28,251 nucleotides of DNA from a virus (IMGVR_UViG_3300045988_167927); one strand, 5' to 3'; counted from the stretch's first letter, positions 184 to 28,251 are shown. Program-made: numbers and translations. The notes: generated by a model from the letters alone, not told the origin.

Positions 184-224
184 ACACAGGTGTCTGTGAA
201 GATTGTACTGTGTTTTTTTTTTTT
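184..224 (+). terminator. Rho-independent terminator after the junction-spanning ORF
   Basis: Stem ACACAG (184-189) / CTGTGT (208-213) followed by a run of about 12 T. It abuts the integrase stop codon on the opposite strand. Confidence 0.6.
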
Positions 225-9279: not shown

Positions 9280-9304
9280 CATACACCTATAATAGACAAT
9301 ATCA

Positions 9305-12115
9305 ATGATAGAACTATACATAGACGGAAAGAGGGCGGACATCGCACAGGACAGCGACATAAAGATGACATACCAAAGCGCAGATGCCAAAGAACCAACA
9401 GCGATAAAGAACTCGTTCTCAAAGTCGCTCAACCTCGACGGCACACCAGTGAATAACTCAATATTCGGACACTGCTACAGACTTGACATCAACATTTTAG
9501 AAAGCGACAAACTCAATGGTGTTAACTTTGACCCCCGAAAGCGAGTGCCATTTGATTTAATCAACAATGGTGAGATAATTGAATCAGGATATATTAAGTT
9601 GAACACAGTAAGCGTAGAGAGCGGAAAGGTGAAATATAACATAACTCTCTACGGCAGTTTGGGCGACTTCTTCTACAACCTCGCATACAACGATGACGGA
9701 GAGCAGTTGACACTCGCAGACATCTACTTCGGGTTTGATGATGTACAGGGTAAGAGGTTAACAGAGAGCGAGGAAACAAAGGACAGGAACATCATCAAGT
9801 GGGACGCTGACTTCATCAAAGATGGTTGGAAGAAATTAAAGACAGGCGCACCAGACAACCACTCGCCCTCAAACTTCATCGTAGGCGCACCGACTTACAG
9901 CGGTTACTACGATGATTTCAATAACGACAAGTTTCTCGTAAACTACAGAACACTGACCGACAGCGAGAAACGTCTATTCCCCGATGTGGACAACGGATAC
10001 GACGGTTATGTCACAGTTACGGCACAGAGGGAGTTCGATGAATGGGAGGCGAGAGACTTGAGGGCGGTATATCAACGCCCTTGTATAAAGACCGATTTCT
10101 TGATTGACGCTATATGCAAAAGTCAGGAGAAAAACGGTTATACGGTGGAGTTGTCAGACAGTATAAGAAACAGCGAGTATTTCAACCGAACTTGGGTTAT
10201 GCTGTCAAGGTTGGACAGGGAGAACTCCACACAGTCGGGCATCTACAACTTGACGCTTGACTACAGCACAACGCCACTACAGTCGAGGTACACAAATATA
10301 CCTCTCAAGCAGGGGAACGACTACGCAATAACTGTGAACAAAAACGAGACAGTATCTTTCAACCTCTTGATTAACAACACAATTCAGTTCCCTACGAGAG
10401 TTGAGAGCGGAAAGAGTGTCGCCACATCGTTCCTTATCTCGAACAAGAAGTCGTACTACTTCCACACCAACTACGGCGGTTATGTCTATGGCATAGTGTT
10501 GAGCGATGAACAAGGCAAGGTTGTCCACATCTCGCCTATGTACTTGCACACAACAAAAATAAACAACAAGTACAACTACCTTTCAAGCGACATATACGGA
10601 AACTGGGCGGTAGACCCTGTAGCACAGTTCGGTGTATTCAAAAACAGGTTGATAACCGACATCAAGACGGATTTAGGCACTACAGACGACCTAACACTAA
10701 AGGTGGTTTACTCCGATTTGGAAGAAACTGACGACGCTACAGGCGGTTCTGTGCGCTTCAAGTTCAAGAGCGATATGAGAGTAAAGACCAATTACTACAA
10801 CGCCACAGAGACAAAGTTGAGGGCGAGACTGTTCTTCCGCCGTATATCATACGCTGTCTTGAACAACAACGCATACGACATAAGCGGTAACGCCACATTC
10901 GGTGTAGATGTCGACGACAACGGTTATTACTGGTTGCATTCAATAGGTGGATTAAATCAAATCAATATGTCTGTCAACAGCGGATTCTTCTACGGTGAAA
11001 TCAACCCCGACACCTCTGTCTCTATGGTGTCGAAGAAGATGCTGTTCGGCAATCTGCCTACACCCCTCGCTTTCCTGACTGACTATTTCAAATTGTTCAA
11101 CTCTCGTTTCGTTTTCGACCCGAAGACGAAGACGGTGAGGATAATGACGGCGAAAGAATACTATAAAGACAGTATTGTTGACATAGAGACGGACATAGAC
11201 CGCTCACAGACGTTGACGATAACACCTACTGTTATTGAGAGCAAGTATTTCCTCTACGGAATGCCTGTGGCAGAGACATACGCCGAGAGACTGTACAGTA
11301 ACAAGAACAATGTGCCATACGGTTATTACAGACTTGTAACACCATACAATTTCTCCAATGACGAAAAGGATATATTCGCAGAGAGCATCTACACAAACAC
11401 AATACCGTACAGGTTGAACTCGCAGATGTTCGGCAGGACAAAGATAGACGAGAGCACATACTACCCGACATTCGCCATTCCGTACACATATTCGTACAAC
11501 TACATGGACAACGACTTCACCCACAACGGAGCGATGGCATCTGTGGTCATACCTCGCTACACTGACGAGATACCAAAACTGTGCTGTTTTGACACAGACA
11601 ACAGTCAGGCGGACATACCTGTGTCGCTCGTATTCTTCGACGGTTTCAAGCGTTCATCTACACCTATCATCATCTCTGATACAATAGACGAGATGATAGA
11701 CACCAACGAAAACCCCTGCTACTTGTACGACAACGCCGTTGAAAAGGTGTACGACATTCCTGTGTTCTCAAAGTACCTCACAGGCGACATAGACTACGGT
11801 AGGGAGGGTTATACACACTCCCTCGACTTCGGCAGACCTGCCTCCACATTCCTCGGTGACTTGGACTATTACACAGACGACACACAGACCTTGAGCGACT
11901 ACTGGCGCACATACATCGACGACATCTACGCAAAGAACGCAAAGACTGTCAAGTTGAAAGCGAGGATAAAGGGAAGACCAAATGACGCTATGAGGGTGTT
12001 TTACGCATTTGACAACTCCCTGTGGTTGCTGTTGAGATTGGACAACTACAACCCGAACGACACCCTGTCAGATGCGACATTCGTCAAAATAGACAGCACC
12101 AGCAATTATATTTAA
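9305..12115 (+). CDS. Large tail/baseplate (Tal-like, host-recognition) protein
   Basis: 936 aa. The N-terminus MIELYIDGKRADIAQDSDIKMTY...SKSLNLDGTPVNNSIFG is typical of phage tail hub/fibre proteins. Flanked by other tail genes. Confidence 0.55.
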   Translation: MIELYIDGKRADIAQDSDIKMTYQSADAKEPTAIKNSFSKSLNLDGTPVNNSIFGHCYRLDINILESDKLNGVNFDPRKRVPFDLINNGEIIESGYIKLNTVSVESGKVKYNITLYGSLGDFFYNLAYNDDGEQLTLADIYFGFDDVQGKRLTESEETKDRNIIKWDADFIKDGWKKLKTGAPDNHSPSNFIVGAPTYSGYYDDFNNDKFLVNYRTLTDSEKRLFPDVDNGYDGYVTVTAQREFDEWEARDLRAVYQRPCIKTDFLIDAICKSQEKNGYTVELSDSIRNSEYFNRTWVMLSRLDRENSTQSGIYNLTLDYSTTPLQSRYTNIPLKQGNDYAITVNKNETVSFNLLINNTIQFPTRVESGKSVATSFLISNKKSYYFHTNYGGYVYGIVLSDEQGKVVHISPMYLHTTKINNKYNYLSSDIYGNWAVDPVAQFGVFKNRLITDIKTDLGTTDDLTLKVVYSDLEETDDATGGSVRFKFKSDMRVKTNYYNATETKLRARLFFRRISYAVLNNNAYDISGNATFGVDVDDNGYYWLHSIGGLNQINMSVNSGFFYGEINPDTSVSMVSKKMLFGNLPTPLAFLTDYFKLFNSRFVFDPKTKTVRIMTAKEYYKDSIVDIETDIDRSQTLTITPTVIESKYFLYGMPVAETYAERLYSNKNNVPYGYYRLVTPYNFSNDEKDIFAESIYTNTIPYRLNSQMFGRTKIDESTYYPTFAIPYTYSYNYMDNDFTHNGAMASVVIPRYTDEIPKLCCFDTDNSQADIPVSLVFFDGFKRSSTPIIISDTIDEMIDTNENPCYLYDNAVEKVYDIPVFSKYLTGDIDYGREGYTHSLDFGRPASTFLGDLDYYTDDTQTLSDYWRTYIDDIYAKNAKTVKLKARIKGRPNDAMRVFYAFDNSLWLLLRLDNYNPNDTLSDATFVKIDSTSNYI

Positions 12116-14896: not shown

Positions 14897-14916
14897 ATTA
14901 CATTAAATATTGATAC

Positions 14917-14950
14917 AGAGACCGTTAGCGATGACGGTCTCTATTTTATT
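14917..14950 (+). terminator. Rho-independent terminator after the tape measure gene
   Basis: Perfect 9-bp stem AGAGACCGT (14917-14925) / ACGGTCTCT (14934-14942), 8-nt loop, then ATTTTATT. Confidence 0.8.
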
Positions 14951-15010
14951 CAATCATCAATATGTTTTGATTTAATCAAAATTGAACGATAAATATTTTT
15001 TTTATATATT

Positions 15011-15645
15011 GGTGTACGAGAGCGGATAATATCCCCACATCACTGCTTAGAGGGGTGAAACAATAAAACCCCTTAAATGGGCAAGTTCATCGAAACGTAG
15101 GTTCAGTGCGAACTATTCAACGCCGAGTAGATTTCTTGACTATCCAAACCTTTAAGCAAATAAGTGCTTATCCGCACTCCTACATACAGGGGAGAAAGAG
15201 AGAGCGTAATTGCCCCGATTGCTTGCTTAGATGCTTCCAGTTTACGCCGCTCCACTACAGAGCGAAGAACGCACTATACGTTTTAATGGTTTTCAAACGG
15301 TAAAAACCAGTCATACAACGCAATCCTGTTGCTGAAAGGGAGCAACGTCCTCTACCAGGGTCTGACGACTCCCGACTGCACATCGACAATGCGGTGACAG
15401 GACAAATTGCGGTTCGGTAAATGCCGTAGCACTTGGAGGGTGATTACGGAACTTCTGGATAACGGGAGTGTGCAGGGTCGAATGTATGGCGGTAGAGTGT
15501 AGTGACTCGAAGAATGCACTATCCCATCCTTTTATTTATTTAAGAATTTAATTATTGATTCTTTTATTATTAAAGAGGGTGGAGATAGGTGCAGGATATA
15601 AAGACCCTGGTGTATCTAATCGTAATCTCATAATTCTCATGAGAA
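15011..15645 (+). ncRNA. Candidate large structured RNA with group I (IA2-like) intron core motifs; boundaries approximate
   Basis: This is the largest ORF-free gap in the genome (14897-15876), and its core is visibly more G+C-rich than its AT-rich flanks. It contains multiple nested complementary segments and core-like strings, detailed in the first finding. Confidence 0.5.
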
Positions 15646-15696
15646 ATTCATAAATCAATAATAGAAAAACAAAACGAGGATATGTTCATAACGTAT

Positions 15697-15835
15697 CACT
15701 GCGACGCTCCGATACACTCTCGTTCCATACATAACATCATACGACCTCCACAGATGCGATATAACGCACTAAAACCTTTCCGACATACAACTAATAACCT
15801 ACGCCCTTAGAGTGCGTCAGAATCGCTCATTTAAC
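15697..15835. repeat. Noncoding repeat family X, copy 1 (most diverged)
   Basis: Shares CTGCGACGCTC and ACCTACGCCCTTAGAGTGCGTCAGAATCGCTCATTTAACGCT with the copies at 25206-25316 and 25682-25811. Confidence 0.55.
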
Positions 15836-15876
15836 GCTTAAACAGTATTCTATATATTAATCAAAACACCGCTCAA

Positions 15877-16968
15877 ATGACTAAACTCCCAATATACGAG
15901 GCACTAATTTCTTCGGAAGATGACGGTATCATCACAATATCTCTTGTTGACGACCCTGCCGTTGAGTCTGATTTCGTCTGTTTTGCAAAAGACGGAGGTA
16001 AACAGTTATTCGCCCTGTCAGACACTTCGGAACACCTAATCACTGGTTGTCTTATGAAAGCGGATACACCGATTTATCGCAACGATAACGGTTACGAATA
16101 CTACATAGTATTTTCAAAGGAAACGATAAAGACAATGGCGCAGAAGATGCTTGCAGACTCCACTTTCAAGAATATCGACCTGCAACACAACGGTGAACTG
16201 CTTCCATGTGATTCGCTTATACTTACCGAGGTGTACATCAAGGATTCAAATAAAGGCATAGACCCAAACTTTGTTGACATTCCCGACGGTTCGTTGATGA
16301 CGACGTTCAAGGTGGTAGACGAAAGCATTTGGCAGGAGTGTGTTGAGGGCGAGTATCTTAATGGATTCTCTTTAGAGGGTTTCTTCGATACAAAGCAGAT
16401 TGACTTTTCTAAAAATAAACCAAATAAAATAAATTCATTCAAGATGAGAATAAAGGAAATGTTACGCCGTATGCTTGCGCAGTTCGGCGAGGTGTCGATG
16501 GACGAGTTGACGCTCTATTACGAGGGTGACGGTGAAATCGAGGTAGGCACCAATGTTACCGACATCGACGGAAACCCTGTCGCTGACGGCGAGTACCACA
16601 ACGCCGAAATGACCGTAAAGGTTGTGGACGGCAAGGTTGACGCTATCGAGTACTTCGAAAAGGAAAATGATGATGAACCAGAAACCGATGTTGTGGACGA
16701 GGAACTTGAGGAAAACGATGAAACTGTAGTAGATGAAACAGTGGTTGAAGAACCTGCCAATGAAGAACCTGTGGTTGACATCGAAAAGGAACTCGCTGAC
16801 TTACGCTCTATGGTCGAGGAACTAAAGAAGAGGGTTGACGATATGGTCGCAGAACCAGTGGTAGACCCGATTGAAGAGGAGTTCAGCAAGAAATTCAGGA
16901 GCGACATCACCGACAAAAAGGTGCAAAGAGCGGTTGAAATCGCAAGGGCGTTACACTCAAAGGCATAA
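15877..16968 (+). CDS. XkdF-like prohead protease fused to an acidic scaffold-like C-terminal region
   Basis: The N-terminal region LVDDPAVESDF...YYIVFSKETIKTMAQKMLADSTFKNIDLQHNG resembles the XkdF putative phage serine protease family. The C-terminal third is very D/E-rich and helical. Lies directly upstream of the capsid gene. Confidence 0.65.
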   Translation: MTKLPIYEALISSEDDGIITISLVDDPAVESDFVCFAKDGGKQLFALSDTSEHLITGCLMKADTPIYRNDNGYEYYIVFSKETIKTMAQKMLADSTFKNIDLQHNGELLPCDSLILTEVYIKDSNKGIDPNFVDIPDGSLMTTFKVVDESIWQECVEGEYLNGFSLEGFFDTKQIDFSKNKPNKINSFKMRIKEMLRRMLAQFGEVSMDELTLYYEGDGEIEVGTNVTDIDGNPVADGEYHNAEMTVKVVDGKVDAIEYFEKENDDEPETDVVDEELEENDETVVDETVVEEPANEEPVVDIEKELADLRSMVEELKKRVDDMVAEPVVDPIEEEFSKKFRSDITDKKVQRAVEIARALHSKA

Positions 16969-16994: not shown

Positions 16995-17011
16995 AAAAGC
17001 GTACCGCATAA
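16995..17011 (+). promoter_or_regulatory. Conserved intergenic motif AAAAGCGTACCGCATAA (copy 3)
   Basis: Exact 16-nt core, preceded by a perfect 9-bp hairpin GCATAACAT-AA-ATGTTATGC that overlaps the upstream stop codon. Lies 95 nt upstream of the capsid gene start. Confidence 0.5.
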
Positions 17012-17089
17012 CGGACACATAGCACTCAACAGTAAATAACTTATTTCTATTTAAGTTAAAATAAACTAAAGCAAAAAACATTATTAACA

Positions 17090-18001
17090 ATGGCAAATCC
17101 TATTGTAACATCATTACCAAAATACGTTGAACAACACATATTGCCTCTTATCTCAAAGAGCGTATTAGGAAGTAAATCAGCAAGTTTGTTCAACCTCTTG
17201 ACTGGTGTCAAAGGCGACACCGCACTCAACCTGCTTGCAACAGATGTGACCTTGCAGTCAGCAAAGACTTGCGGTTGGAACGCAGACGGCACTACCACCC
17301 TCTCACAACGCATCGTTAAACCTGCGTACCTCAAGGTTAACCACAACTTCTGTGACAAGCAGTTGCTCAACACTTGGGCGAATTACGAGGTGAAGATTGC
17401 GGCCGGTCAAAAGACCCTCCCATTTGAGGAAGACTTTGTTAACGGTATCGTTGAGCAGGTCAAGGAGCAAATTGAAAAGATGATTTATCAAGGCACAAAG
17501 GCGAAAGAAGATGAGTTCGAGGGTCTTATCTCTATCCTCACCGACGACGCAACCACCATCAAGGTGAACAAGACCAAGGGCACAAGCGCATACGAGGCAA
17601 TCAAGGCGGTGTACGCATCAATGCCCGAAGAGGTTGTCTCTAAAGACGACGCTGTTATCCTTGTGGGCGCAGGCATCTTCCGCCAGTTCATTCAAGAGTT
17701 GGTTTCAGCAAACCTCTACCACTTTGAACCAAACAGCGCAGCGGGCGAATACAAACTTCCTGGCACTGAACTCCGAGTTATCTCTGTGAACGGTCTCAAC
17801 GGCGTTGCAGACAGCGATGTGATTATCGGCGCAAGACTCTCCAACCTGTTCTATGCGACTGATTTGCAGGGCGATGAAGAGAAGTTCGAACTGTGGTACT
17901 CTCAAGACAACAGGGAGTTCCGTCTCGCTATCGAGTTCATCGCAGGTGTGCAATATGCGTATGGTGATGAAATCGTACTCGGCAAAATCGCTAAAGCATA
18001 A
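17090..18001 (+). CDS. Major capsid protein
   Basis: 303 aa, positioned immediately after the protease/scaffold gene. Size and composition are typical of small HK97-fold capsid proteins. Confidence 0.7.
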   Translation: MANPIVTSLPKYVEQHILPLISKSVLGSKSASLFNLLTGVKGDTALNLLATDVTLQSAKTCGWNADGTTTLSQRIVKPAYLKVNHNFCDKQLLNTWANYEVKIAAGQKTLPFEEDFVNGIVEQVKEQIEKMIYQGTKAKEDEFEGLISILTDDATTIKVNKTKGTSAYEAIKAVYASMPEEVVSKDDAVILVGAGIFRQFIQELVSANLYHFEPNSAAGEYKLPGTELRVISVNGLNGVADSDVIIGARLSNLFYATDLQGDEEKFELWYSQDNREFRLAIEFIAGVQYAYGDEIVLGKIAKA

Positions 18002-18093
18002 CATAGTGTAAACCAAATAGAGACTATGGGTGGTGTGCATCGCCACCCTGTAGGTCTCAAGACAATAACGACACCTAACACAATAGATAACAA

Positions 18094-18609
18094 ATGAGTT
18101 GTACAGCATATACTTTAAAAGGTATCACTAACGACTGCTCGGCCTCAAAGGGCGGTATCAGAGAAATCTACATCGCAGACTGGGAAAAGGACATCTTTAC
18201 AGTTGGCGAGACTGCTGACACCGTCACCGCATTGAAGACCGAGGCAAAGTGGTACAAATACTACATCAAGAAAAACACATCATCGTTCACATCTACAGCG
18301 ACCATTGATTTGGCAAATGGTGTGAATTACGTTAGCACCGAACTCGCACTTGTCTTTACAAAAATGGAGACAGCGAAGCGAGTTGAAATGAGCGCACTCT
18401 TGCTCAACGACGTTGCAGTGCTTGTTGTTGATGCCAACAATAAGGTATGGTGTCTTGGGTTGAATAATCCAGTCAACGCCACCGCAGGTACTGGCGAAAC
18501 TGGCACAGCGGCCACCGATGGCAACAAGTACACCATCACACTCACTGACGAGAGCGACACTTTCCCATTCGAGTATTCGGGTGAACTCCCTGCAAGCGCA
18601 AACGCATAG
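18094..18609 (+). CDS. Major tail (tube) protein
   Basis: 171 aa. The pattern ...VVDANNKVWCLGLNNPVNATAGTGETGTAATDGNKYTITLTDES... resembles siphovirus major tail protein families. Followed by a strong terminator. Confidence 0.6.
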   Translation: MSCTAYTLKGITNDCSASKGGIREIYIADWEKDIFTVGETADTVTALKTEAKWYKYYIKKNTSSFTSTATIDLANGVNYVSTELALVFTKMETAKRVEMSALLLNDVAVLVVDANNKVWCLGLNNPVNATAGTGETGTAATDGNKYTITLTDESDTFPFEYSGELPASANA

Positions 18610-18637
18610 TATCAACCACATAAACCTTAAATACATG

Positions 18638-18672
18638 GATACGGAGCAGTCATACTCCGTATTCTTTTTTTT
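18638..18672 (+). terminator. Rho-independent terminator
   Basis: 8-bp stem ATACGGAG (18639-18646) / CTCCGTAT (18655-18662) followed by TTCTTTTTTTTC. Confidence 0.8.
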
Positions 18673-18716
18673 CTGTATGTTTCAATCAAATGATTTTTTA
18701 AACGATTGATTTAATT

Positions 18717-18822
18717 ATGTTTACTACGAAAGAACTTGAGAGCGAATGGGATTGACTGTACAAGACCGACTCTATGGCGACTCCGTCAAGACCTCGGTCT
18801 AATCAATAGACACTAAACCAAG
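18717..18822 (+). pseudogene. Decayed relic of an HNH homing endonuclease gene (paralog of 1720-2241)
   Basis: ATGTTTACTACGAAAGAACTTGAGAGCGAATGGGATTGA matches the first codons of 1720-2241 (MFTEKELESEKW versus MFTTKELESEWD*). GACTCCGTCAAGACCTCGGTCTAA...ACACTAAACC matches its 3' end (2187-2232). The middle of the gene is absent. Confidence 0.65.
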
Positions 18823-18853
18823 AATACGAGACAAAACCGTCTCGTATTTTTTT
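18823..18853 (+). terminator. Rho-independent terminator
   Basis: 9-bp stem ATACGAGAC (18824-18832) / GTCTCGTAT (18839-18847), loop AAAACC, then a T7 run. Confidence 0.8.
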
Positions 18854-18881
18854 ATATTTTAAATAAAACCATAGTAAACAA

Positions 18882-19148
18882 ATGGCGTTAAGTTTTAAAG
18901 AGTTAGAGGTCAAAGATAAAATCTCGTATATCCTCTGTGTTGCATCGTTTATCTGCGGAGCGGTATTGACTTTTTTTGGGGTTTTCCTCGCACCTGTTGG
19001 CATTATAGATGCTTCAATTTTAACGTCATTGGGCATCTTCCTCTCGTTTAGCGGTGCGCTCATCGGAATAAACACACATTATTCAAAAGAGTTACACACA
19101 TTCAAGACCGAGGTACAAAAGACAATCAAGGAAAAACAAAAAGAATAA
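18882..19148 (+). CDS. Small two-TMD membrane protein, holin-like
   Basis: 88 aa with two hydrophobic helices (ISYILCVASFICGAVLTFFGVFLAPVG and ILTSLGIFLSFSGALIGI) and a charged C-terminal tail. Not adjacent to the endolysin. Confidence 0.35.
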   Translation: MALSFKELEVKDKISYILCVASFICGAVLTFFGVFLAPVGIIDASILTSLGIFLSFSGALIGINTHYSKELHTFKTEVQKTIKEKQKE

Positions 19149-19175
19149 CAAAGGATTAAGATAAAGAAATATAAA

Positions 19176-19397
19176 ATGAGAGTAAGTAACGAGCAAGTAT
19201 TCGGCGTACCGAACACATCATTCGGTGTAAGCGGTTCAGCAAGCGGTTTCACACTGAATTATTCCGTTGACGGTAACACTTGGGGAGTATGGTCAGAGGC
19301 GACAAAGGCGAATGAACCTTTGTTTGTTGTCAACGTCCCAAAGTTTATGAAGTATAAGTTGGTGGGCAACACCGAGCAAGTGGAGGTGCGTTGGTGA
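19176..19397 (+). CDS. Hypothetical small protein
   Basis: 73-aa ORF, tightly packed against the next gene (TGA then ATG 2 nt later). Confidence 0.45.
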   Translation: MRVSNEQVFGVPNTSFGVSGSASGFTLNYSVDGNTWGVWSEATKANEPLFVVNVPKFMKYKLVGNTEQVEVRW

Positions 19398-19398
19398 T

Positions 19399-20670
19399 AT
19401 GATTATAGATTTCGATAGCAAACAACAGGGCGGTGGTTCTAAACCGCCAGTGGTGGAAGCGTTGTCTGTAACAGAGAACGGCACATACAATGCTCCGTCA
19501 GGTGTGGACGGTTACAACCCTGTGACGGTGAATGTTCAGAGCGGTGGTGGCGGAAAGTTCGGGATAGGATTTAACCGTATCGCCTTATCTACTAAAGCAC
19601 AAACTATTGATTTATCAAACCTCGATCCGAGCACATTGACAGATATGGGCAGTATGTTCGAATACTGTGAAAACCTCACCTCACTCGACCTGTCGGGTTG
19701 GGACACAAGTAATGTGACAGATATGAATAGTATGTTCTATTATTGTTCATCGCTCACCTCACTCGATGTGTCAGGGTGGGATACAAGCAAGGTGACGAAT
19801 ATGAATAAAATGTTCAGTTATATCAAACTCACCTCACTCGACCTGTCAAGTTTCAATACAGCAAATGTGACAGATATGGGGGGTATGTTCTATAATTGTT
19901 CATCACTCACCTCACTCGATGTGTCAGGGTGGGATACAAGCAAGGTGACGAATATGAATAAAATGTTCAGTTATATCAAACTCACCTCACTCGACCTGTC
20001 AAGTTTCAATACAGCAAATGTGACAGATATGGGGGGTATGTTCTATAATTGTTCATCACTCACCTCACTCGATGTGTCACATTTCGACACAGCGAATGTG
20101 ACGAGTATGAACAGTATGTTCTCGTATTGTAAAAACCCCACTACTCTAAACCTGTCGGGTTGGGATACAAGCAAGGTGACGAATATGAATAGTATGTTCT
20201 CGTATTGTTCATCACTCACCTCACTCGACCTGTCACATTTCGACACAAGCAAGGTGACGAGTATGTACAATATGTTCTCGTATTGTGAAAACCTCACCTC
20301 ACTCGACGTATCACATTTCAATACAGCGAATGTGACGAATATGAATAGTATGTTCTCGTATTGTTCAAAACTCAAATCACTCGATGTGTCAGGTTGGGAT
20401 ACAAGCAAGGTGACGAATATGAATAGTATGTTCTCTGGTTGTTCATCACTCGAGACAATAAACTGCGACGGTCTGAAATTACCAAATATAAATCTCAGCG
20501 ATATACATTTGGACAGTTCACCACTCACAGTCGAGAGTATCGTAGGACTATTGAACGCCCTGCCACAGTCAACGAACAACTACAGTTTCCAAATCGGTGC
20601 TGACAACATCGCCAAACTGTCAGACATGCAAAAACAGATAGCAACCGACAAGGGTTGGACGCTTGTGTAA
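19399..20670 (+). CDS. BspA-like / DUF285-type leucine-rich-repeat protein (likely receptor-binding or surface-adhesion virion protein)
   Basis: 423 aa with about 11 tandem 25-26-aa units of the form LTSLD(L/V)S(G/H)(W/F)(D/N)T(S/A)(K/N)VT(N/D)M(N/G)xMF(S/Y)YCxx. Confidence 0.9.
   Translation: MIIDFDSKQQGGGSKPPVVEALSVTENGTYNAPSGVDGYNPVTVNVQSGGGGKFGIGFNRIALSTKAQTIDLSNLDPSTLTDMGSMFEYCENLTSLDLSGWDTSNVTDMNSMFYYCSSLTSLDVSGWDTSKVTNMNKMFSYIKLTSLDLSSFNTANVTDMGGMFYNCSSLTSLDVSGWDTSKVTNMNKMFSYIKLTSLDLSSFNTANVTDMGGMFYNCSSLTSLDVSHFDTANVTSMNSMFSYCKNPTTLNLSGWDTSKVTNMNSMFSYCSSLTSLDLSHFDTSKVTSMYNMFSYCENLTSLDVSHFNTANVTNMNSMFSYCSKLKSLDVSGWDTSKVTNMNSMFSGCSSLETINCDGLKLPNINLSDIHLDSSPLTVESIVGLLNALPQSTNNYSFQIGADNIAKLSDMQKQIATDKGWTLV
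19474..19695. repeat. 5' module shared with the short LRR gene (matches 23179-23400)
   Basis: About 222 bp, nearly identical (I saw one mismatch, tacaaTgct versus tacaaCgct). Confidence 0.9.
19753..20079. repeat. Perfect tandem duplication, period 153 bp (2.1 copies), inside the LRR gene
   Basis: Position p equals p+153 for p = 19753-19926. This duplicates exactly two LRR units (51 aa, SGWDTSKVTNMNKMFSYIKLTSLDLSSFNTANVTDMGGMFYNCSSLTSLDV). Confidence 0.92.
20428..20659. repeat. 3' module shared with the short LRR gene (matches 23437-23668)
   Basis: About 232 bp that appear identical, encoding MFSGCSSLETINCDGLKLPNINLSD...QKQIATDKGW. Confidence 0.9.
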
Positions 20671-20700
20671 TTGATTAAATCAAACCTAAATTTAATTAAA

Positions 20701-20729
20701 CAAGAGGCAAAACCGCTTCTTGTTTTTTT
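20701..20729 (+). terminator. Rho-independent terminator
   Basis: Stem CAAGAGGC / GCTTCTTG (one G-U pair), loop AAAACC, then a T7 run. The loop is the same as in the terminator at 18823-18853. Confidence 0.7.
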
Positions 20730-20757
20730 CTATTTATAGGTAAAACATTACTAATTT

Positions 20758-21078
20758 ATGGTTTTAGTCAAGAATAAGGCAGACTCGCCCACAACGATAT
20801 ACCCACCAAAGACTGTGACGAAATCGGTCAAGGAGTTGACGCTAACACTCCACTCGATTTCGTCGAATACGGACTACACATTCCCTGTTGACGACACAGG
20901 GGCGTTGAGGGACTACTACGAGATTGAGGTCGATTTCAGTGCGATGCCTGACGGTGAATACCAATACACCATAGGTTGTGACAGCGGACTACTCGTAATC
21001 GGAGACTACAAGGAGAAACGTAAAGAACAAAACAAGCAATACGATGCAGAAACAAAATACTACCAATACCAAGGATAA
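20758..21078 (+). CDS. Hypothetical protein
   Basis: 106-aa ORF that overlaps the portal gene start by 35 nt. Confidence 0.45.
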   Translation: MVLVKNKADSPTTIYPPKTVTKSVKELTLTLHSISSNTDYTFPVDDTGALRDYYEIEVDFSAMPDGEYQYTIGCDSGLLVIGDYKEKRKEQNKQYDAETKYYQYQG

Positions 21079-22150
21079 AAACAAGTCGTTTAGGTTTAGT
21101 GCGATAAACCGAGAGACTACGTCAAACATAATCCCCGACATCGAGGTAGAGTCCACAAACAGCGGTTTCATCTACTGGGGAGAGGATAACTCGTACCCTA
21201 ACTATATCCACCACCTCTACGAGACTGCCACACCCTTGCGCTCATGTATAGCGTCACTGGTTGACTATGTATGTGGAGACAGTGTGGACAGTGAAATAGA
21301 CGGTATGGAGAAAAAGGTGAGGTGCATAGCGACACAGTACGCCTTGTACGGTTGCTTTGCCATCAATGTGTTGAGAAACCGATTCGGAGAGGTGTGTGAC
21401 ATCATACCGATTGATGTAAGATGCCTACGCTCGAACAAGTCCAACACAGAGTTCTTCTATAGCGAGAACTTCAAGGAGATACGAAAGTGGCAGAGGTACA
21501 AGTGCCTCAAGTACCCAGTGTACGACCCTGACAGGAAAGAGATAGCGTCAAGCATTTACTTCTATAAGAACACCCTGTTCCGAACCTACGGTGAACCAAT
21601 TTACAAGTCCGCCCTGTTGAGTGCGGAGTGTCAGAGTGCTATTAATGAGTATAACATCAACTCATTGAACAACGGCATCACAAGCAATGTAATCATCAAC
21701 TTCAACAACGGAATACCCGATGAGCAACAGCAGAGCGAGATTGAGGATATGGTATATGAAAAGTTCTCATCGTTCAGAAACGCCTGTCGACCTATGATTA
21801 ACTTCGCAGACGATGCAGACCACTCCCTTACAGTGGAGAGGATTGATGTCGACGACTTTGTTGAACGTTATGGAGCACTCGCCAAGCGCAGTGCCGACGA
21901 GATATACTCCGCATTCCGAATGTCGCCGATGTTGGCAGGTATCACTATAGACAACAACGGATTCGCAGAGCAGGACTTCGAGGGTGCTTATCGCCTGTTC
22001 AACAAGACGGTGGTGCAACCGCTCCAAAAGGACATCGTAAACGGAATCAACAACCTCTTGGGCGATAACGCTGTATCTATAACACCGTTCAACATCAAGT
22101 GGGAAGACACAGCAGATGATAATAACCAAAATGTAAACGAGATTAACTGA
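21044..22150 (+). CDS. Portal protein
   Basis: 368 aa. FIYWGEDNSYPNYIHHLYETATPLRSCIASLVDYVCGD and FRMSPMLAGI are typical portal-family motifs. Confidence 0.8.
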   Translation: MQKQNTTNTKDKNKSFRFSAINRETTSNIIPDIEVESTNSGFIYWGEDNSYPNYIHHLYETATPLRSCIASLVDYVCGDSVDSEIDGMEKKVRCIATQYALYGCFAINVLRNRFGEVCDIIPIDVRCLRSNKSNTEFFYSENFKEIRKWQRYKCLKYPVYDPDRKEIASSIYFYKNTLFRTYGEPIYKSALLSAECQSAINEYNINSLNNGITSNVIINFNNGIPDEQQQSEIEDMVYEKFSSFRNACRPMINFADDADHSLTVERIDVDDFVERYGALAKRSADEIYSAFRMSPMLAGITIDNNGFAEQDFEGAYRLFNKTVVQPLQKDIVNGINNLLGDNAVSITPFNIKWEDTADDNNQNVNEIN

Positions 22151-22151
22151 T

Positions 22152-22679
22152 ATGGAGACACTACTTACATCGACAACAACCATACGCACCATAACGAACA
22201 TATCAGATAACGTTAGTGATAAATACTTGCTCTCGGCATTGAGAGAGGCACAGGAGCAGTCTCTTGTGGAGATTACAGGTCAACCACTACTTGACGCACT
22301 AAAGGCGATGGTGGAGAGCGGTACAGTTGACCAGGGCGCACCGTACAAGCGACTGTTAGACCACATCAAATACTACCTCTGCTACAAGGCGGTGTCGAAC
22401 CTGTGTGTAATAGTATCGTTCAAAATTGACAACATAGGCGTAAATCAGACCTCTGACGAGAATGTGCAAGTGGTTGGAATGAAAGACGTATTCAAGATGT
22501 CTGACTACTACCTGCAACGCTCTGATTTCTACAGAAAGCGCATTCAGGAATATCTCTTGAAGAACAAGAGCGATTTCCCCGAACTTGAGAGTTTGAGCGA
22601 TAATCAAATCAACCCGAACCTCGCAACCACAGCGTCGACTGGACTTTTCCTCGGAGGGCATAGGGGCAGAATCCTTTAA
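22152..22679 (+). CDS. Hypothetical virion protein (head-tail connector/adaptor by position)
   Basis: 175 aa, starting 2 nt after the portal stop. Confidence 0.4.
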   Translation: METLLTSTTTIRTITNISDNVSDKYLLSALREAQEQSLVEITGQPLLDALKAMVESGTVDQGAPYKRLLDHIKYYLCYKAVSNLCVIVSFKIDNIGVNQTSDENVQVVGMKDVFKMSDYYLQRSDFYRKRIQEYLLKNKSDFPELESLSDNQINPNLATTASTGLFLGGHRGRIL

Positions 22680-22706
22680 TTCATTTAAAACAAACTGATT
22701 CAATCA

Positions 22707-23162
22707 ATGAAATATAGAGAACTCTTAAACAATATAACCGAGGTGGCGAAGAAACACCCTAATATTAACTCGACATTCATAGGTGATGTTTACGAGTTAA
22801 ATCACCGTAACGATGTTGACTACTGCGCTTTCGTTATCACACAAGGAACGCATAGAGTGAACAGCGATGACGAGACCATTGACTACACCCTCAACCTTTT
22901 CTATGTCGACCGTCTGACAGCGGACGAGGGCAACCGCACACAGATACACTCATCGGGCATCGACTTTATGAATTCGCTGTTGAGAGCGGTCGAGAAACTT
23001 GGTGTAACAGTCGTAGAGCAAACAGTGAATGTGTTCAACGAGAGGTTCAATGATGTGTGCGCAGGTGTTTACGCTGGCGTTGTGTTCAGGTGCAATATAG
23101 ACGAGTGCGGACAGACGATAGAGATTATTTCCTATAACGACCTAAAGACAACCAGTGCTTGA
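22707..23162 (+). CDS. Hypothetical virion protein (neck/tail completion by position)
   Basis: 151-aa ORF with a coding-like composition. Confidence 0.4.
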   Translation: MKYRELLNNITEVAKKHPNINSTFIGDVYELNHRNDVDYCAFVITQGTHRVNSDDETIDYTLNLFYVDRLTADEGNRTQIHSSGIDFMNSLLRAVEKLGVTVVEQTVNVFNERFNDVCAGVYAGVVFRCNIDECGQTIEIISYNDLKTTSA

Positions 23163-23679
23163 TACTCTCAATGTGGTGGAGAACGGCACATACAACGCTC
23201 CGTCAGGTGTGGACGGTTACAACCCTGTGACGGTGAATGTTCAGAGCGGTGGTGGCGGAAAGTTCGGGATAGGATTTAACCGTATCGCCTTATCTACTAA
23301 AGCACAAACTATTGATTTATCAAACCTCGATCCGAGCACATTGACAGATATGGGCAGTATGTTCGAATACTGTGAAAACCTCACCTCACTCGACCTGTCA
23401 CATTTCGACACAAGCAAGGTTGCGAATATGGTGGAAATGTTCTCTGGTTGTTCATCACTCGAGACAATAAACTGCGACGGTCTGAAATTACCAAATATAA
23501 ATCTCAGCGATATACATTTGGACAGTTCACCACTCACAGTCGAGAGTATCGTAGGACTATTGAACGCCCTGCCACAGTCAACGAACAACTACAGTTTCCA
23601 AATCGGTGCTGACAACATCGCCAAACTGTCAGACATGCAAAAACAGATAGCAACCGACAAGGGTTGGAAACTAATTTAG
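23155..23679 (+). CDS. Short BspA-like LRR paralog (N- and C-terminal modules of 19399-20670 with only about 2 LRR units)
   Basis: 174 aa. There is no in-frame ATG, and the listed start at 23155 is GTG, overlapping the upstream stop. Residues 8-82 and 95-172 are essentially identical to the long paralog. Confidence 0.7.
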   Translation: MLDTLNVVENGTYNAPSGVDGYNPVTVNVQSGGGGKFGIGFNRIALSTKAQTIDLSNLDPSTLTDMGSMFEYCENLTSLDLSHFDTSKVANMVEMFSGCSSLETINCDGLKLPNINLSDIHLDSSPLTVESIVGLLNALPQSTNNYSFQIGADNIAKLSDMQKQIATDKGWKLI

Positions 23680-23701
23680 ACACTAATTATATTTAATCAA
23701 G

Positions 23702-24310
23702 ATGAAGATATTAATCGACAATGGACATGGGGTCAACACCGCAGGCAAGCGTTCACCTAAAGGCGGAAAGTATGGTGTACTCTATGAATGGAAATACGCA
23801 AGGGAAATAGCGAGACCACTTGTGGACAGGTTGAAGAAATTAGGTTATGACGCTGAACTCGTTGTGACAGAGGACAACGATGTGTCACTCGGTGAGCGAT
23901 GCCGTAGAGTAAACAGGTGGTGTGATAAACTTGGTGCGAAGAACTGTCTCTTTGTGTCAATTCATTCAAACGCTTCGTCAGATTGTTCAACTTGGCAGAA
24001 ACCTAACGGTTGGTGTGAGTTTGTTTACACTAAAGCATCAAGTGCATCAAAGCGACTTGCACAGTGCCTTTATGATGAGGCGTACAAGAGGGGGTTGAAA
24101 GGTAATAGAAGCGTTCCCGATTGTAGGTATTGGACAGCGAATTTCTATGTACTTAAAAACACCAAGTGCCCTGCTGTGCTTACGGAGAATATGTTCTATG
24201 ACAATATGGAGGATTACGAGTTCCTGCTCTCGGAGACTGGCAGGGAAACGATAATTGACTTGCACATTGACGGCATAGTGAAATACATCAAAGGACTTGA
24301 GAGCAAATGA
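23702..24310 (+). CDS. N-acetylmuramoyl-L-alanine amidase (endolysin)
   Basis: MKILIDNGHGVNTAGKRSP, SIHSNA and LTENMFYDN correspond to the Amidase_3-type zinc-ligand and catalytic motifs. Confidence 0.88.
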   Translation: MKILIDNGHGVNTAGKRSPKGGKYGVLYEWKYAREIARPLVDRLKKLGYDAELVVTEDNDVSLGERCRRVNRWCDKLGAKNCLFVSIHSNASSDCSTWQKPNGWCEFVYTKASSASKRLAQCLYDEAYKRGLKGNRSVPDCRYWTANFYVLKNTKCPAVLTENMFYDNMEDYEFLLSETGRETIIDLHIDGIVKYIKGLESK

Positions 24311-24834
24311 AACTGAAACAAAACGATATAGTCACAATGACATTGACGGTAGGCATCGGTATCGCCTTGATATTGCTGTCTATGCTCTCGTCTTGTTCGC
24401 CTAAAGTTAGATATATAACACAAACGGTTGAGATACCCAAGATACAAAAGGAATATGTGAACAGGGTCGACAGCGTTTTCATCAAAGACGTTGACAGCAT
24501 CTACACCGATAGATACATAAAGTCGGATACGGTCTATATAGAAAAGAATAAGATAAAGTACAGAAACAGGAATATTCTACAGCGAGACACCATTCTCCGC
24601 ACTGATAGTGTATTCGTTCCTGTAAAGTACGACAATCCTGAACTTTTGAGCGAGATTGATACGCTAAATCAGAAATTGAATGACTCCGCTGTTAAAGAGA
24701 AATTGCATAAACATACAATCTCAATGTATAATTATGCTTTATTGCTTGGCGGATTGTGCTTGATATTATTTAATTTAAACAAAATAAAGAAGATTTTCAA
24801 GTTTTTGATTGATTTGATTAGAAAGGTTATTTAA
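24307..24834 (+). CDS. Unimolecular-spanin-like lipoprotein (N-terminal lipobox plus C-terminal TMD)
   Basis: Signal peptide with lipobox LSSC (…ALILLSMLSSCSPK). The C-terminal hydrophobic helix is YALLLGGLCLILFNL. The start overlaps the amidase stop (ATGA). Confidence 0.5.
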   Translation: MKLKQNDIVTMTLTVGIGIALILLSMLSSCSPKVRYITQTVEIPKIQKEYVNRVDSVFIKDVDSIYTDRYIKSDTVYIEKNKIKYRNRNILQRDTILRTDSVFVPVKYDNPELLSEIDTLNQKLNDSAVKEKLHKHTISMYNYALLLGGLCLILFNLNKIKKIFKFLIDLIRKVI

Positions 24835-24899
24835 TCAAATAAAAAATACATCGGTTCTGCATCGGGCATCGCTACCTAAAAGACAAAGGACTGAAATTA

Positions 24900-24938
24900 G
24901 GAGAGAGGGAATGGTGATAACCTCTCTCCGCTTTTTTT
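24900..24938 (+). terminator. Rho-independent terminator after the lysis genes
   Basis: Perfect 9-bp stem GGAGAGAGG (24900-24908) / CCTCTCTCC (24921-24929), then GCTTTTTTT. Confidence 0.85.
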
Positions 24939-25027
24939 ACTGTTCCGTTTACTGTTCACAGAACTGTTCCGTTTTGTCCGTAATTCCTTGACTGTCAACA
25001 ATTAGAACTGTTCCGTTTACTGTTTGG
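24939..25027. repeat. Iteron-like direct repeats ACTGTTCCGTTT(ACTGTT)
   Basis: ACTGTTCCGTTT occurs at 24939, 24963 and 25007, and the copies at 24939 and 25007 extend to 18 nt. Further ACTGT(T/C) hexamers lie at 24951 and 24991. Confidence 0.7.
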
Positions 25028-28006: not shown

Positions 28007-28251
28007 ATGGAGGTAAAGAACGGCAAGGCAGTGCCGAAGAAGCAGGAGATGATGAACGCCCTAAAAGGTCTAATCCTCAACCTACGTTCGATACAGGGCG
28101 TAACGTCTACTGTCAAAGAACTGCAATCGACGCTGAATTACGCTCTCTCAAGGGCGATAGCGTTCAAGAATGAACAGCACTCCAGTGCGGAGATTTTAGA
28201 GCGTCTGAACGCCTTAAAAACGCTTAAAAGCGATTTGGGCGATGCGTACCA
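28007..28251 (+). CDS. 5' part of the junction-spanning hypothetical protein (continues at 1-131)
   Basis: The ATG at 28007 sits in the context GAATTAAACCAAATGG, which closely resembles the start context of 7066 (GAATTAAATCAATGG). The ORF has no stop before the window end. Confidence 0.5.
   Translation, partial: MEVKNGKAVPKKQEMMNALKGLILNLRSIQGVTSTVKELQSTLNYALSRAIAFKNEQHSSAEILERLNALKTLKSDLGDAY

Follow-up and report, generated by a model that had tools for sequence, protein, structure and literature searches.

The window analysed here, a stretch of 28,251 nt, is a circular 28.2-kb temperate siphophage-like genome with a terminal overlap of 55 nt, and its recognizable genes include those for an integrase, TerL, a TMP-like protein, a protease, a portal and an endolysin. 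Two genes of DUF285/BspA-type LRR proteins bracket the portal gene, as an earlier note on this DNA had claimed. The slot-1 LRR fibre gene (19399-20670, plus strand, as are the other features of this region) encodes 423 aa, and the slot-2 LRR ORF (23155-23679) encodes 174 aa counted from a GTG. Their assignment relies on a score above the Pfam gathering threshold and on repeated ~26-aa units of the form 'LxxLDLSxxDTSxVTxMxxMFxxC'. The long protein scores 256.2 bits and the short one 40.4 bits against DUF285 (PF03382; gathering cut-off 25).

Unit parsing of the long protein gave an N-terminal peptide MIIDFDSK, which is kept in relatives, followed by a GGG linker, a single 'NGTY' stalk unit, 11 LRRs of 25/26 aa each and a C-cap. 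The slot-2 ORF comprises one stalk unit, two LRR units and a C-cap, so that the earlier estimate of about 11 versus about two repeats proved accurate. The family as a whole follows a common plan: an anchor, a glycine linker, 0-6 stalk units of roughly 25 aa ('L.V.ENGTY.P.GVDGY.PV.VNV'), an LRR N-cap, a variable number of LRRs and a helical C-cap. Structure prediction, which the earlier note had suggested, was informative for the short protein: AF2 modelled residues 45-174 with confidence as LRR plus C-cap, and the stalk unit with low confidence as a monomer. The C-cap is strongly conserved across the family and has a pLDDT above 90. A Foldseek search of the LRR model against the PDB returned only weak generic LRR matches (E>=0.04), indicating that the C-cap has no solved homologue detectable by this search.

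The two genes share nearly identical ends. The 5' module, consisting of the stalk unit, the LRR N-cap and LRR unit 1, occupies 19474-19695 in slot 1 and 23179-23400 in slot 2; 220 of its 222 nt are identical, with an exact run of 203 nt, and the two mismatches are T/C at 19491/23196 and G/A at 19695/23400. The 3' module, which covers the end of the last LRR unit and the helical C-cap (20428-20659 and 23437-23668), is identical over all 232 nt. For comparison, the longest exact repeat expected by chance is 13-18 nt (20 shuffles of the window). Inside the long array, the perfect 153-nt tandem duplication pointed out before (19753-20079, 2.14 copies) was recovered by direct comparison, 19753-19926 being equal to 19906-20079 over 174 nt at an offset of 153. 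It is in frame and corresponds to 51 codons or two LRR units, units 3-4 being the same as units 5-6; TRF gave the array as 10 copies of 78 nt, together with the 153-nt period. Unit 2 of the short cassette carries 16 nt that are absent from the long array. Thus, the two arrays are not simple derivatives of each other, and an origin of the short array by simple deletion from the long one was rejected.

A conserved 73-aa ORF (19176-19397) directly precedes the free-standing fibre gene. Its distance upstream of the fibre gene is 1 nt for slot 1 of L002 and L004-L008, and 25-57 nt in the distant relatives L009-L013. This synteny is the evidence for the ORF, which has no Pfam or PHROG match; its product is possibly a partner or chaperone of the fibre. 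Between the two LRR genes lie a 106-aa ORF kept in relatives (20758-21078; no family match in Pfam or PHROG), the portal gene (21044-22150; Phage_portal, PF04860, 47.7 bits with a cut-off of 39.1, and PHROG portal families), the gene of a DUF6712 protein, presumed to be a head-tail connector component (22152-22679; PF20459, 49 bits), and a 151-aa ORF (22707-23162). The downstream boundary of the cassette region is an N-acetylmuramoyl-L-alanine amidase endolysin gene (23702-24310; Amidase_3, 94 bits; PHROG endolysin).

The phage is considered temperate because of the integrase gene at 223-1356, and in general it appears to be a long-tailed gut phage of Bacteroidales type. The host family is suggested by the BACON and SAM_5-integrase domains and by Bacteroidales MAG contigs carrying distant homologues of the terminator described below. 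No tRNA was found in the whole window, which therefore offers no att/tRNA clue to the host. An ORF-free region of 980 nt gave no Rfam match in either mode, and its folding energy is not unusual. Among INPHARED phages, neither megablast of 17000-25000 nor tblastn of the major capsid protein gave a match, and tblastn of the short LRR protein found only partial LRR matches, in records of Listeria and Butyrivibrio phages. IMG/VR and GTDB genomes gave nothing in a scan for the portal pattern, and a metagenome scan with the portal alignment yielded one 1.5-kb fragment.

A predicted tail terminator precedes slot 2 and is fused to LRRs in relatives

The AF2 model of the 151-aa ORF (pLDDT 85, pTM 0.81) has a gpU-type alpha/beta fold. 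Its Foldseek matches in the PDB include, with probability 1.0, lambda gpU (3fzb; target-normalised TM 0.65, rmsd 4.2 Å), A-1(L) gp7, the proteins of Mu, NF5 and SaPI1, and the pyocin and diffocin collars. Essentially all of the 29 matches at E<=1e-3 are tail terminators or collar proteins, with TM values of 0.45-0.65 at 8-16% identity. On the basis of this predicted structure, the ORF probably encodes the tail terminator. gpU-like terminators assemble into a hexameric ring that closes off the tail tube and meets the head-completion proteins. As with lambda gpU, SPP1 gp17 and T5 p142, the fold is encoded beside the portal and connector genes (PMC11784142), and the order portal, DUF6712, terminator is kept in all relatives, DUF6712 always being in between.

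Relatives from independent samples all have the two-slot architecture. In L004, L005, L006 and L008, whose portals are 85-94% identical, the terminator and the LRR region form one in-frame protein of 494, 663, 404 and 762 aa, respectively, with unchanged synteny. Distant relatives have stand-alone terminators and keep a '93 aa - 73 aa - LRR fibre' cassette, in which the fibre varies from 587 to 711 aa among otherwise near-identical genomes. An exhaustive HMM search with the terminator profile retrieved at least 1,800 clusters (1,813 at E<=1e-3). About 90 of the best 150 matches are at least 250 aa long and carry the terminator domain at residues 1-140; among 89 such long matches, LRR_5 is present in 23 and DUF285 in 20, and other extensions include Phage_tail_C, collagen, coiled coils, and BACON or fibre repeats.

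The slot-2 LRR ORF is split from the terminator by a deletion

Alignment of the junction DNA with the in-frame relatives L004, L005, L006 and L008, combined with three-frame translation, identified CTAAAGACAACCAGTGCTTGA (23142-23162) as the scar left where stalk repeats were deleted out of frame. Within it lie a +1-frame TAA (23143-23145), the GTG (23155-23157) and the deletion-created TGA (23160-23162) at which the terminator ends. Downstream, the LRR ORF is intact over 174 codons in the +1 frame and overlaps the terminator stop by 8 nt. The same junction is found in L002, L014, L015 and P0121, so the split allele is present in at least four assemblies and in P0121. The GTG itself is the conserved Val codon of the stalk repeat. 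The slot-2 ORF is thus best described, from these alignments, as the C-terminal part cut from a terminator-LRR fusion and not as an independent gene by origin. The earlier description of a short copy with a GTG start overlapping the upstream gene is right as regards the ORF, but a free-standing gene it is not, being fused in frame in relatives. Programmed frameshifting was rejected as an account of the split: CTAAAGACAACCAGTGCTTGA carries no X XXY YYZ motif or other slippery heptamer, no shifty stop and no re-pairable P-site codon, and the relatives are in frame without any shift.

The near-identity of the two slots is restricted to one lineage

Comparison with related phages, as had been recommended, showed that in the window and L002 the C-modules of the two slots share 98-100% of their nucleotides, versus 52-72% within L004, L005, L006 and L008, where the slots of one genome are no closer to each other than to those of other genomes. 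Since the slots are that divergent in the relatives, the near-identical ends seen here are best read as the product of a recent, lineage-specific gene conversion. Paralogues closer than orthologues are found only in the window/L002 lineage and not throughout the clade; sustained concerted evolution was therefore rejected, and the data fit a single recent conversion instead. Hence, with regard to the earlier proposal of ongoing conversion or recent duplication, conversion is supported as a recent event but not as an ongoing process.

The number of LRRs, put forward as the main difference between the two genes, also varies between alleles and relatives: L002 has a 191-aa allele, and the proteins of relatives range from 216 to 762 aa. 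Slot 1 of L002 carries the short cassette, with a 472-nt perfect match to its own slot 2 and with the slot-1 SNP retained.

Assemblies of the lineage disagree on the long array

All sequences compared are short-read metagenome assemblies, and five assemblies of this lineage disagree on the length of the array and on the slot that it occupies. The window and scaffold_499 have proteins of 423 and 174 aa, and those of L002 measure 191 and 174 aa. In L014, precisely 19773-19925 is missing, so that the duplicate is absent, and there are further deletions of 77 nt and 69 nt. L015 contains N gaps, and its slot-2 5' module runs into units 2-3 of the long array. Both ends of scaffold_499 lie in the 3' module, and this scaffold holds the portal segment twice. 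The region is consequently polymorphic, assembly-fragile, or both, and the exact copy number and slot of the long array are not secure; the concern about collapse or chimera raised in the earlier note is a real one. Separately, one public scaffold was seen to have a spurious 3-kb terminal redundancy.

Discussion

We consider it probable that the two loci are paralogous genes for virion fibres of adhesin type, that slot 2 derives from the splitting of a terminator-LRR protein, and that recent conversion and changes in repeat number shaped their present form. Slot 1 would encode a free-standing fibre, anchored by the MIIDFDSK..GGG peptide and always placed after the 73-aa gene. Slot 2 would ancestrally have been a C-terminal extension of the tail-terminator protein and, if so, about six LRR-tipped fibres would be expected at the head-tail junction. 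A deletion at an AAAGA(C)AA microhomology would then have taken out stalk repeats out of frame, leaving the 151-aa terminator and the 174-codon LRR ORF in the +1 frame; any translation of this ORF would need reinitiation at the fortuitous GTG that overlaps the TGA. The conserved end modules could have provided the homology for recent intragenomic gene conversion. Repeat number would shift when 78-nt units slip or recombine unequally; the recent 153-nt duplication, the allele of 191 aa and the size range of the relatives may be examples. Display on the virion and a six-fold copy number are plausible consequences, the slot-2 ORF might still be made, and a receptor-binding or adhesin function, including a role in host recognition, seems reasonable given the attachment to a virion protein in relatives.

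The fate of the slot-2 ORF admits two other readings. It may be an unexpressed remnant, the phage relying on the slot-1 fibre alone, its intact appearance then being due solely to a recent overwriting by, or donation to, slot 1. The out-of-frame deletion, the want of a proper start, the mere two LRR units compared with the longer arrays in the relatives' fusions (404-762 aa in total) and the distant relatives that manage with a bare terminator all agree with such a loss. On the other hand, no stop codon interrupts the ORF, zero differences separate the window from L002 over 490 nt where about three would be expected, and the short cassette was copied into slot 1 in L002, which makes it at least a usable sequence donor; we regard the dead remnant as somewhat unlikely. 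Conversely, the split could be functional if ribosomes at GTGCTTGA underwent programmed frameshifting (+1 or -2) or else terminated and reinitiated, giving a minority terminator-LRR fusion or a separate LRR protein, so that only some terminator subunits would bear a fibre, in a way likened to gpG/gpGT or lactococcal TpeX. The intact ORF with its 8-nt overlap of the stop, the persistence of the allele in several samples that differ by 0.5-3% elsewhere and the stand-alone terminators of distant relatives speak for this possibility. We nevertheless find it quite improbable: a slippery heptamer or shifty stop is missing, a GCU codon in the P site would be unable to re-pair on CUU, microhomology deletion relative to the in-frame relatives explains the junction, and the GTG is a stalk-repeat Val and not an evolved start.

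Other readings concern the region as a whole. The two slots may be real while the placement of the array, its total of 11 units or the duplicated 153 nt is an assembly artefact, produced by a de Bruijn graph path through the 203- and 232-nt identical flanks and the tandem loop. The disagreement of the five assemblies is what such an error would leave, but the two-slot architecture recurs in every relative, the duplication junction needs junction k-mers in the reads, and two contigs agree base for base, though possibly from the same reads. Moreover, collapse being the usual assembly error, at least two copies of the duplicated segment are likely, and on balance an artefact appears rather unlikely. 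It is very improbable that the genes are lysogenic-conversion (moron) genes, by which a prophage would make BspA-like cell-surface proteins that change host adhesion. BspA/DUF285 proteins are indeed best known from bacterial surfaces, and the phage is temperate; however, neither a hydrophobic signal nor a lipoprotein sequence can be seen on inspection of the N-terminus MIIDFDSKQQGGGSK, the genes lie on the same strand within the structural module, and relatives have the domain covalently joined to a tail-terminator fold. Likewise, inspection of the N-terminal MIIDFDSKQQGGGSKPP revealed no hydrophobic core, Pfam gave no domain other than LRR, and the secretion or lipoprotein signal and sorting domain of a BspA-like cell-surface adhesin were thus not seen. 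Programmed diversification, by a DGR or by a recombinase-driven shufflon or phase variation, would suit repeated cassettes in a genome that encodes a tyrosine recombinase, yet it is effectively refuted. No reverse transcriptase occurs in any scanned ORF of at least 90 aa, in agreement with the earlier view that this is not a DGR, and the T/C and G/A module mismatches are not adenine-specific. The modules are direct repeats, no flanking inverted repeats were found beyond weak ones (<=24 nt, 75-81% identity), which dismisses an invertible shufflon, and the recombinase is a typical phage integrase ~18 kb away.

Our preferred reading, paralogous fibre genes altered by conversion and repeat-number change, has counterparts in known systems. 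T-even phages (gp37/38) and Streptococcus thermophilus phages (VR2 with collagen-like repeats) exchange RBP cassettes via conserved flanks. There too, conserved ends provide homology around a variable binding region and repeats promote length change; here, in contrast, the exchange would be between two equally oriented slots of a single genome with essential genes between them, and the variable part is an LRR array. The neck passage structure (NPS)/collar-whisker and carbohydrate-binding module (CBM) decorations of lactococcal 936/P335 siphophages are accessory, non-essential adhesion modules at the head-tail junction and along the tail, modular, variable between close relatives and thought to aid adsorption (PMC6669499). 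The present fibres would similarly be modular accessory adhesion units at the head-tail junction that vary among close relatives. However, the lactococcal CBMs belong either to a distinct NPS protein or to extensions of the tail tube produced by frameshifting, whereas here a BspA/DUF285 LRR solenoid is, in relatives, fused directly to the tail terminator; furthermore, the NPS is defined by EM and the present phage is known from its sequence. Some TrPs carry additional domains according to the T5 paper, but these are concerned with sheath termination or are domain duplications, unlike the LRR fibre (PMC11784142). BspA/DUF285 LRR surface proteins of Tannerella, Mycoplasma and Trichomonas, which act as adhesins in cells (PMC2843621), share the PF03382 and PF13306 repeats and copy-number-variable arrays; the phage proteins differ in having no signal peptides, lipoboxes or sorting domains, in their phage-specific anchors and in a distinct conserved C-cap. 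With DGR targets such as Bordetella phage Mtd and those of Bacteroides phages (PMC8143477), the common trait is a gut-phage surface protein diversified at its ligand-binding end, but here there is no reverse transcriptase, TR/VR pair or adenine mutagenesis, and variation comes from recombination and repeat number. In the literature, we found no description of DUF285, BspA or LRR in phage virions, nor of terminator-anchored neck fibres or of a fibre/LRR extension of a terminator.

Host recognition and mucosal adhesion of gut Bacteroidales phages are poorly understood, and few of these phages are cultured. As a tentative extension, terminator-anchored fibres might be widespread, undescribed neck appendages of such phages, often BspA/DUF285-LRR-tipped, whose slots exchange cassettes by homologous recombination through the stalk/N-cap and C-cap modules, and the disagreement among assemblies would then reflect real heterogeneity. 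If true, phage populations would carry alternative lengths and placements of the adhesin (long/short, short/short, long/long), and the terminator-fibre architecture would recur across more than a thousand protein clusters. It would also define a testable architecture, in which the neck displays a terminator fusion whose repeat stalk bears an LRR solenoid, and a simple mutational route, unequal LRR recombination plus two-slot cassette conversion, for which no retroelement is needed. Among the means by which phages vary their surface adhesins, two-slot LRR variation is in itself of interest but recognisable. In practical terms, short-read assemblies of such phages are broken or wrongly circularised by the identical modules, each more than 200 nt long, around the portal.

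Two LRR genes with shared ends

Both ORFs described in the earlier note, the free-standing gene of 423 aa (slot 1, 19399-20670) and the GTG-initiated ORF of 174 aa (slot 2, 23155-23679), were recovered, and both proteins pass the Pfam DUF285 family. Position-by-position comparison also bears out the similarity claimed for their ends: the 5' modules (19474-19695 and 23179-23400) share 220/222 nt and the 3' modules (20428-20659 and 23437-23668) 232/232 nt, with longest exact runs of 203 and 232 nt, respectively, while the longest exact repeat in the shuffled window was 13-18 nt (n=20). A repeat search of the window likewise recovered both long-range pairs, and the repeats are in direct orientation only.

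Within the long gene, the reported 153-nt tandem duplication is indeed perfect (19753-19926 equals 19906-20079, 2.14 perfect copies), and TRF detected 78-nt and 153-nt periodicities. This gene was parsed into 11 LRR units of 25/26 aa each, with units 3-4 equal to units 5-6, and the short one into 2 units. Since the internal units of the long array are 50-83% identical to each other, they are old, the 153-nt duplicate alone being fresh. Simple deletion from the present long array did not produce the short cassette: its unit 2 joins 32 nt from the start of long unit 9, 16 unique nt and 30 nt from the end of unit 11.

The slot-2 LRR ORF and the tail terminator

Exact-protein look-ups found this phage in further samples, as well as four relatives, L004, L005, L006 and L008, whose portals are 85-94% identical to that of the window; L008 lies inside a 148-kb contig and is therefore integrated. 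The gene order is the same in all four: 73-aa gene, LRR gene(s), ~106-aa gene, portal, DUF6712, one long gene (404, 494, 663 or 762 aa) and amidase. The first ~146 residues of the long gene are ~90% identical to the 151-aa ORF of the window (22707-23162), and in alignments its remainder is made up of stalk repeats and DUF285 LRRs, plus the same C-terminal module. In the window, the reading frame changes between these terminator and LRR parts: ...ISYNDLKTTSA* closes the 151-aa ORF, and the slot-2 LRR ORF begins in the +1 frame directly after a TAA. No programmed frameshift is recognisable at this split. When the DNA is aligned, the junction reads CCTAAAGACAAT-CAGGATTGAC...(stalk repeats)...GAAAGAAAACCAGTGCTTGAG in the relatives and CCTAAAGACAACCAGTGCTTGA in the window, which carries an out-of-frame deletion. 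This non-multiple-of-three deletion lies between AAAGA(C/A)AA microhomologies, and the ORF overlap GTGCTTGA is an accident of it. The GTG does overlap the upstream gene, as had been noticed, but it is no evolved start: it corresponds to the conserved Val codon of the stalk motif ...(K/E)PVL(E/D)....

The same split allele is present in three other assemblies of this lineage (L002, L014 and L015) and in the 97%-identical P0121, and is therefore transmitted and no one-off error. The detached ORF could be a dead remnant, a reading that we hold to be rather unlikely; expression of the ORF by frameshift or reinitiation seems quite improbable.

To assign the 151-aa domain, we modelled it with AlphaFold2 from 14 homologues (pLDDT 85, pTM 0.81) and searched the PDB with the result. 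The 29 matches at E<=1e-3 are almost exclusively tail-terminator proteins, including lambda gpU (3fzb; TM 0.65 target-normalised, rmsd 4.2 Å), cyanophage A-1(L) gp7 and those of Mu, NF5, SaPI1, P74-26 and Chi; pyocin, diffocin and monocin collars also match. By family, the anchor is a gpU-like terminator and the repeats are DUF285/BspA-type LRRs.

An exhaustive search of 1.84 billion representative proteins with the terminator profile hit 1,813 clusters (E<=1e-3). Of the 150 that scored best, ~90 are 250-1,204 aa long, with the terminator domain at residues ~1-140. A Pfam scan of 89 long terminator proteins detected LRR_5 (BspA-type) in 23/89, DUF285 in 20/89 and Phage_tail_C in 7/89, and collagen, coiled coils, BACON or fibre repeats are among the matches of the remaining ones. 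Fibre-like C-terminal extensions are therefore common in this terminator family; its other members, among them the abundant P0130 group, are bare terminators of ~140-155 aa. The best match to the profile, P0137 (475 aa), shows three matched stretches, the best at residues 152-291, and may hold terminator domains in tandem, unless the ORF was mis-called or is a fusion.

A common plan of the fibres

Alignments reveal a shared five-part organization: an anchor, formed by the terminator domain or by a short conserved peptide at the N-terminus, and after it a G-rich linker; a ~25-aa stalk unit (L.V.ENGTY.P.GVDGY.PV.VNV) in 0-6 copies; an N-cap; the LRR array; and a ~75-aa C-cap (…LTV[DE]SIVGLLNALP…FQIG..NIAKLS..QK.IAT.KGW.L), which is nearly invariant over hundreds of proteins. 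The anchor peptides are MIIDFDSK or MIANFKDK, and MHINIAKINF or MYINISKVDF in distant relatives. Stalk units number zero in L008 slot 1, two in L006 slot 1 and ~6 in L008 slot 2. In the AlphaFold2 model of the short protein, residues 45-174 form an LRR with a helical cap (pLDDT >90), whose PDB matches are generic LRRs only, and the stalk unit, modelled as a monomer, has low confidence.

The 73-aa gene always precedes the free-standing fibre, even in distant relatives, where the terminator is followed by the entire '93 aa - 73 aa - fibre' block. These more distant phages form an abundant group (L009-L013, about 7075-9242) with the bare terminator P0130 (402 member sequences). Their fibre, an LRR_5-like array built from 23-aa CYxxMFxxCTSLTxAPELPATTL units, measures 587-711 aa and varies in length between otherwise near-identical phages; in L012 no gene was called at the fibre position. 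L004 possesses two tandem slot-1 fibre genes, 9303-9983 and 10001-10675 (226 and 224 aa), with different anchors (MIIDFDSK and MIANFKDK) and diverged C-caps, hence three LRR fibre genes in total. In all relatives, the 73-aa gene and the fibre gene are accompanied by an 88-aa protein (18882-19148 in the window) with two predicted hydrophobic segments and weak matches to 2-TM families, which could be holin-like or a fibre-assembly factor.

Origin of the slot identity and reliability of the assemblies

Over the last 75 codons, nucleotide identity between slots 1 and 2 reaches 98-100% in the window and L002, whereas in L004, L005, L006 and L008 it is 52-72%, not above the between-genome identity. 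Sustained concerted evolution is thereby rejected, and homogenisation of the slot ends is recent and specific to the window/L002 lineage, probably a single gene-conversion or duplication episode. The 191-aa slot-1 gene of L002 retains the slot-1 N-terminus and the slot-1 SNP at 19491, while the rest is a 472-nt perfect copy of the short cassette, the product that would be expected from whole-cassette conversion via the shared end modules.

Five assemblies give five versions of the cassette region. ENA scaffold_499 has the same bases as the window (a JGI/IMG contig), but it runs from the 3' module of one gene to that of the other and contains the 3-kb portal segment twice. This segment is traversed twice between identical 3' modules, which accounts for the scaffold length of 31,260 nt and creates a spurious terminal redundancy of 3,064 nt. 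In L014 (H10_Tanzania_scaffold_516), precisely one 153-nt copy (19773-19925) is missing, and deletions of 77 and 69 nt break the frame. L015 (IMG 3300014770) has N gaps in slot 1, and its slot-2 5' module, bearing the slot-2 SNP, runs into units 2-3 of the long array before the contig ends. Such disagreement could reflect real population polymorphism in cassette placement and length, or short-read graphs failing at the 203- and 232-nt identical flanks; probably both contribute. The presence of two slots is robust, as are the split junction and the identity of the end modules; not secure are how many units there are exactly, how many copies of the duplicate (at least 2) and which slot holds the long array.

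Proposed role and comparison with known systems

The LRR proteins are modular and, in the relatives, covalently linked to a terminator-fold domain. We propose that they are displayed on the virion, where the slot-2 fibre would sit at the neck in ~6 copies and the slot-1 fibre would attach through its N-terminal peptide, possibly together with the 73-aa protein. They may serve as accessory adhesins, binding ligands of the host surface or the mucosa. End identity is lineage-specific and lengths differ among alleles and relatives; unequal recombination or slippage could alter array length, with the end modules serving as homology for conversion. Recombination between the direct repeats might, in addition, excise the portal segment and leave defective genomes.

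No reverse transcriptase was found in the scanned ORFs of the genome, in agreement with the earlier view that this is not a DGR, and a shufflon is ruled out, since the repeats are direct. The closest likeness in function is to the lactococcal siphophage neck passage structure with its CBM decorations (PMC6669499), alongside mosaic tail-fibre cassette exchange. Our literature search found no description of terminator-anchored LRR or neck fibres; a T5 study reports extra domains in some terminators, for sheath termination or by duplication only (PMC11784142). Recombination of this sort is ordinary in repeat-rich phage fibre genes. More interesting is the fusion of terminator and LRR, which, like its breadth in public data, appears undescribed.

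Genome context and host

Bases 1-55 of the window equal bases 28197-28251, so it is a circularised contig, a complete circular genome of 28,196 unique bp. It encodes a tyrosine integrase (223-1356, minus strand), TerL, a tape-measure-like protein (917 aa), an XkdF-type protease, a capsid-like protein (303 aa), portal, DUF6712 and an amidase endolysin, a gene set that identifies it as a small temperate tailed phage. Its structural genes are unusually ordered, with TerL distant from the portal and large proteins before the tape measure. Upstream of the latter, a 737-aa BACON-domain protein (7066-9279; Pfam 25.7 bits, at cut-off) is a further candidate glycan- or mucin-binding virion protein.

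The searches tried found no relatives in the annotated phage collection or IMG/VR. Distant homologues of one protein on MAG contigs binned as Tannerellaceae, Bacteroidaceae and Rikenellaceae, together with the BACON domain and the SAM_5-type integrase, point to a Bacteroidales host.

NUMOD4/HNH homing endonuclease genes occupy varied positions (1720-2241 in the window; 8892-9416, 16406-16945 and 19700-20245 in L008; 4683-5153 in L006, directly downstream of the slot-2 fibre gene) and could be drivers of local gene conversion and mosaicism.

Between the tape-measure-like and protease genes, 980 nt (14897-15876) contain no ORF >=70 aa. Rfam was matched neither at gathering nor at E<=1, and folding of the central 561 nt has a z-score of -1.0. 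This stretch is 100% conserved in same-lineage contigs and ~80% in L005 and L008, and L004 keeps only its first ~48 nt, including a terminator-like hairpin.
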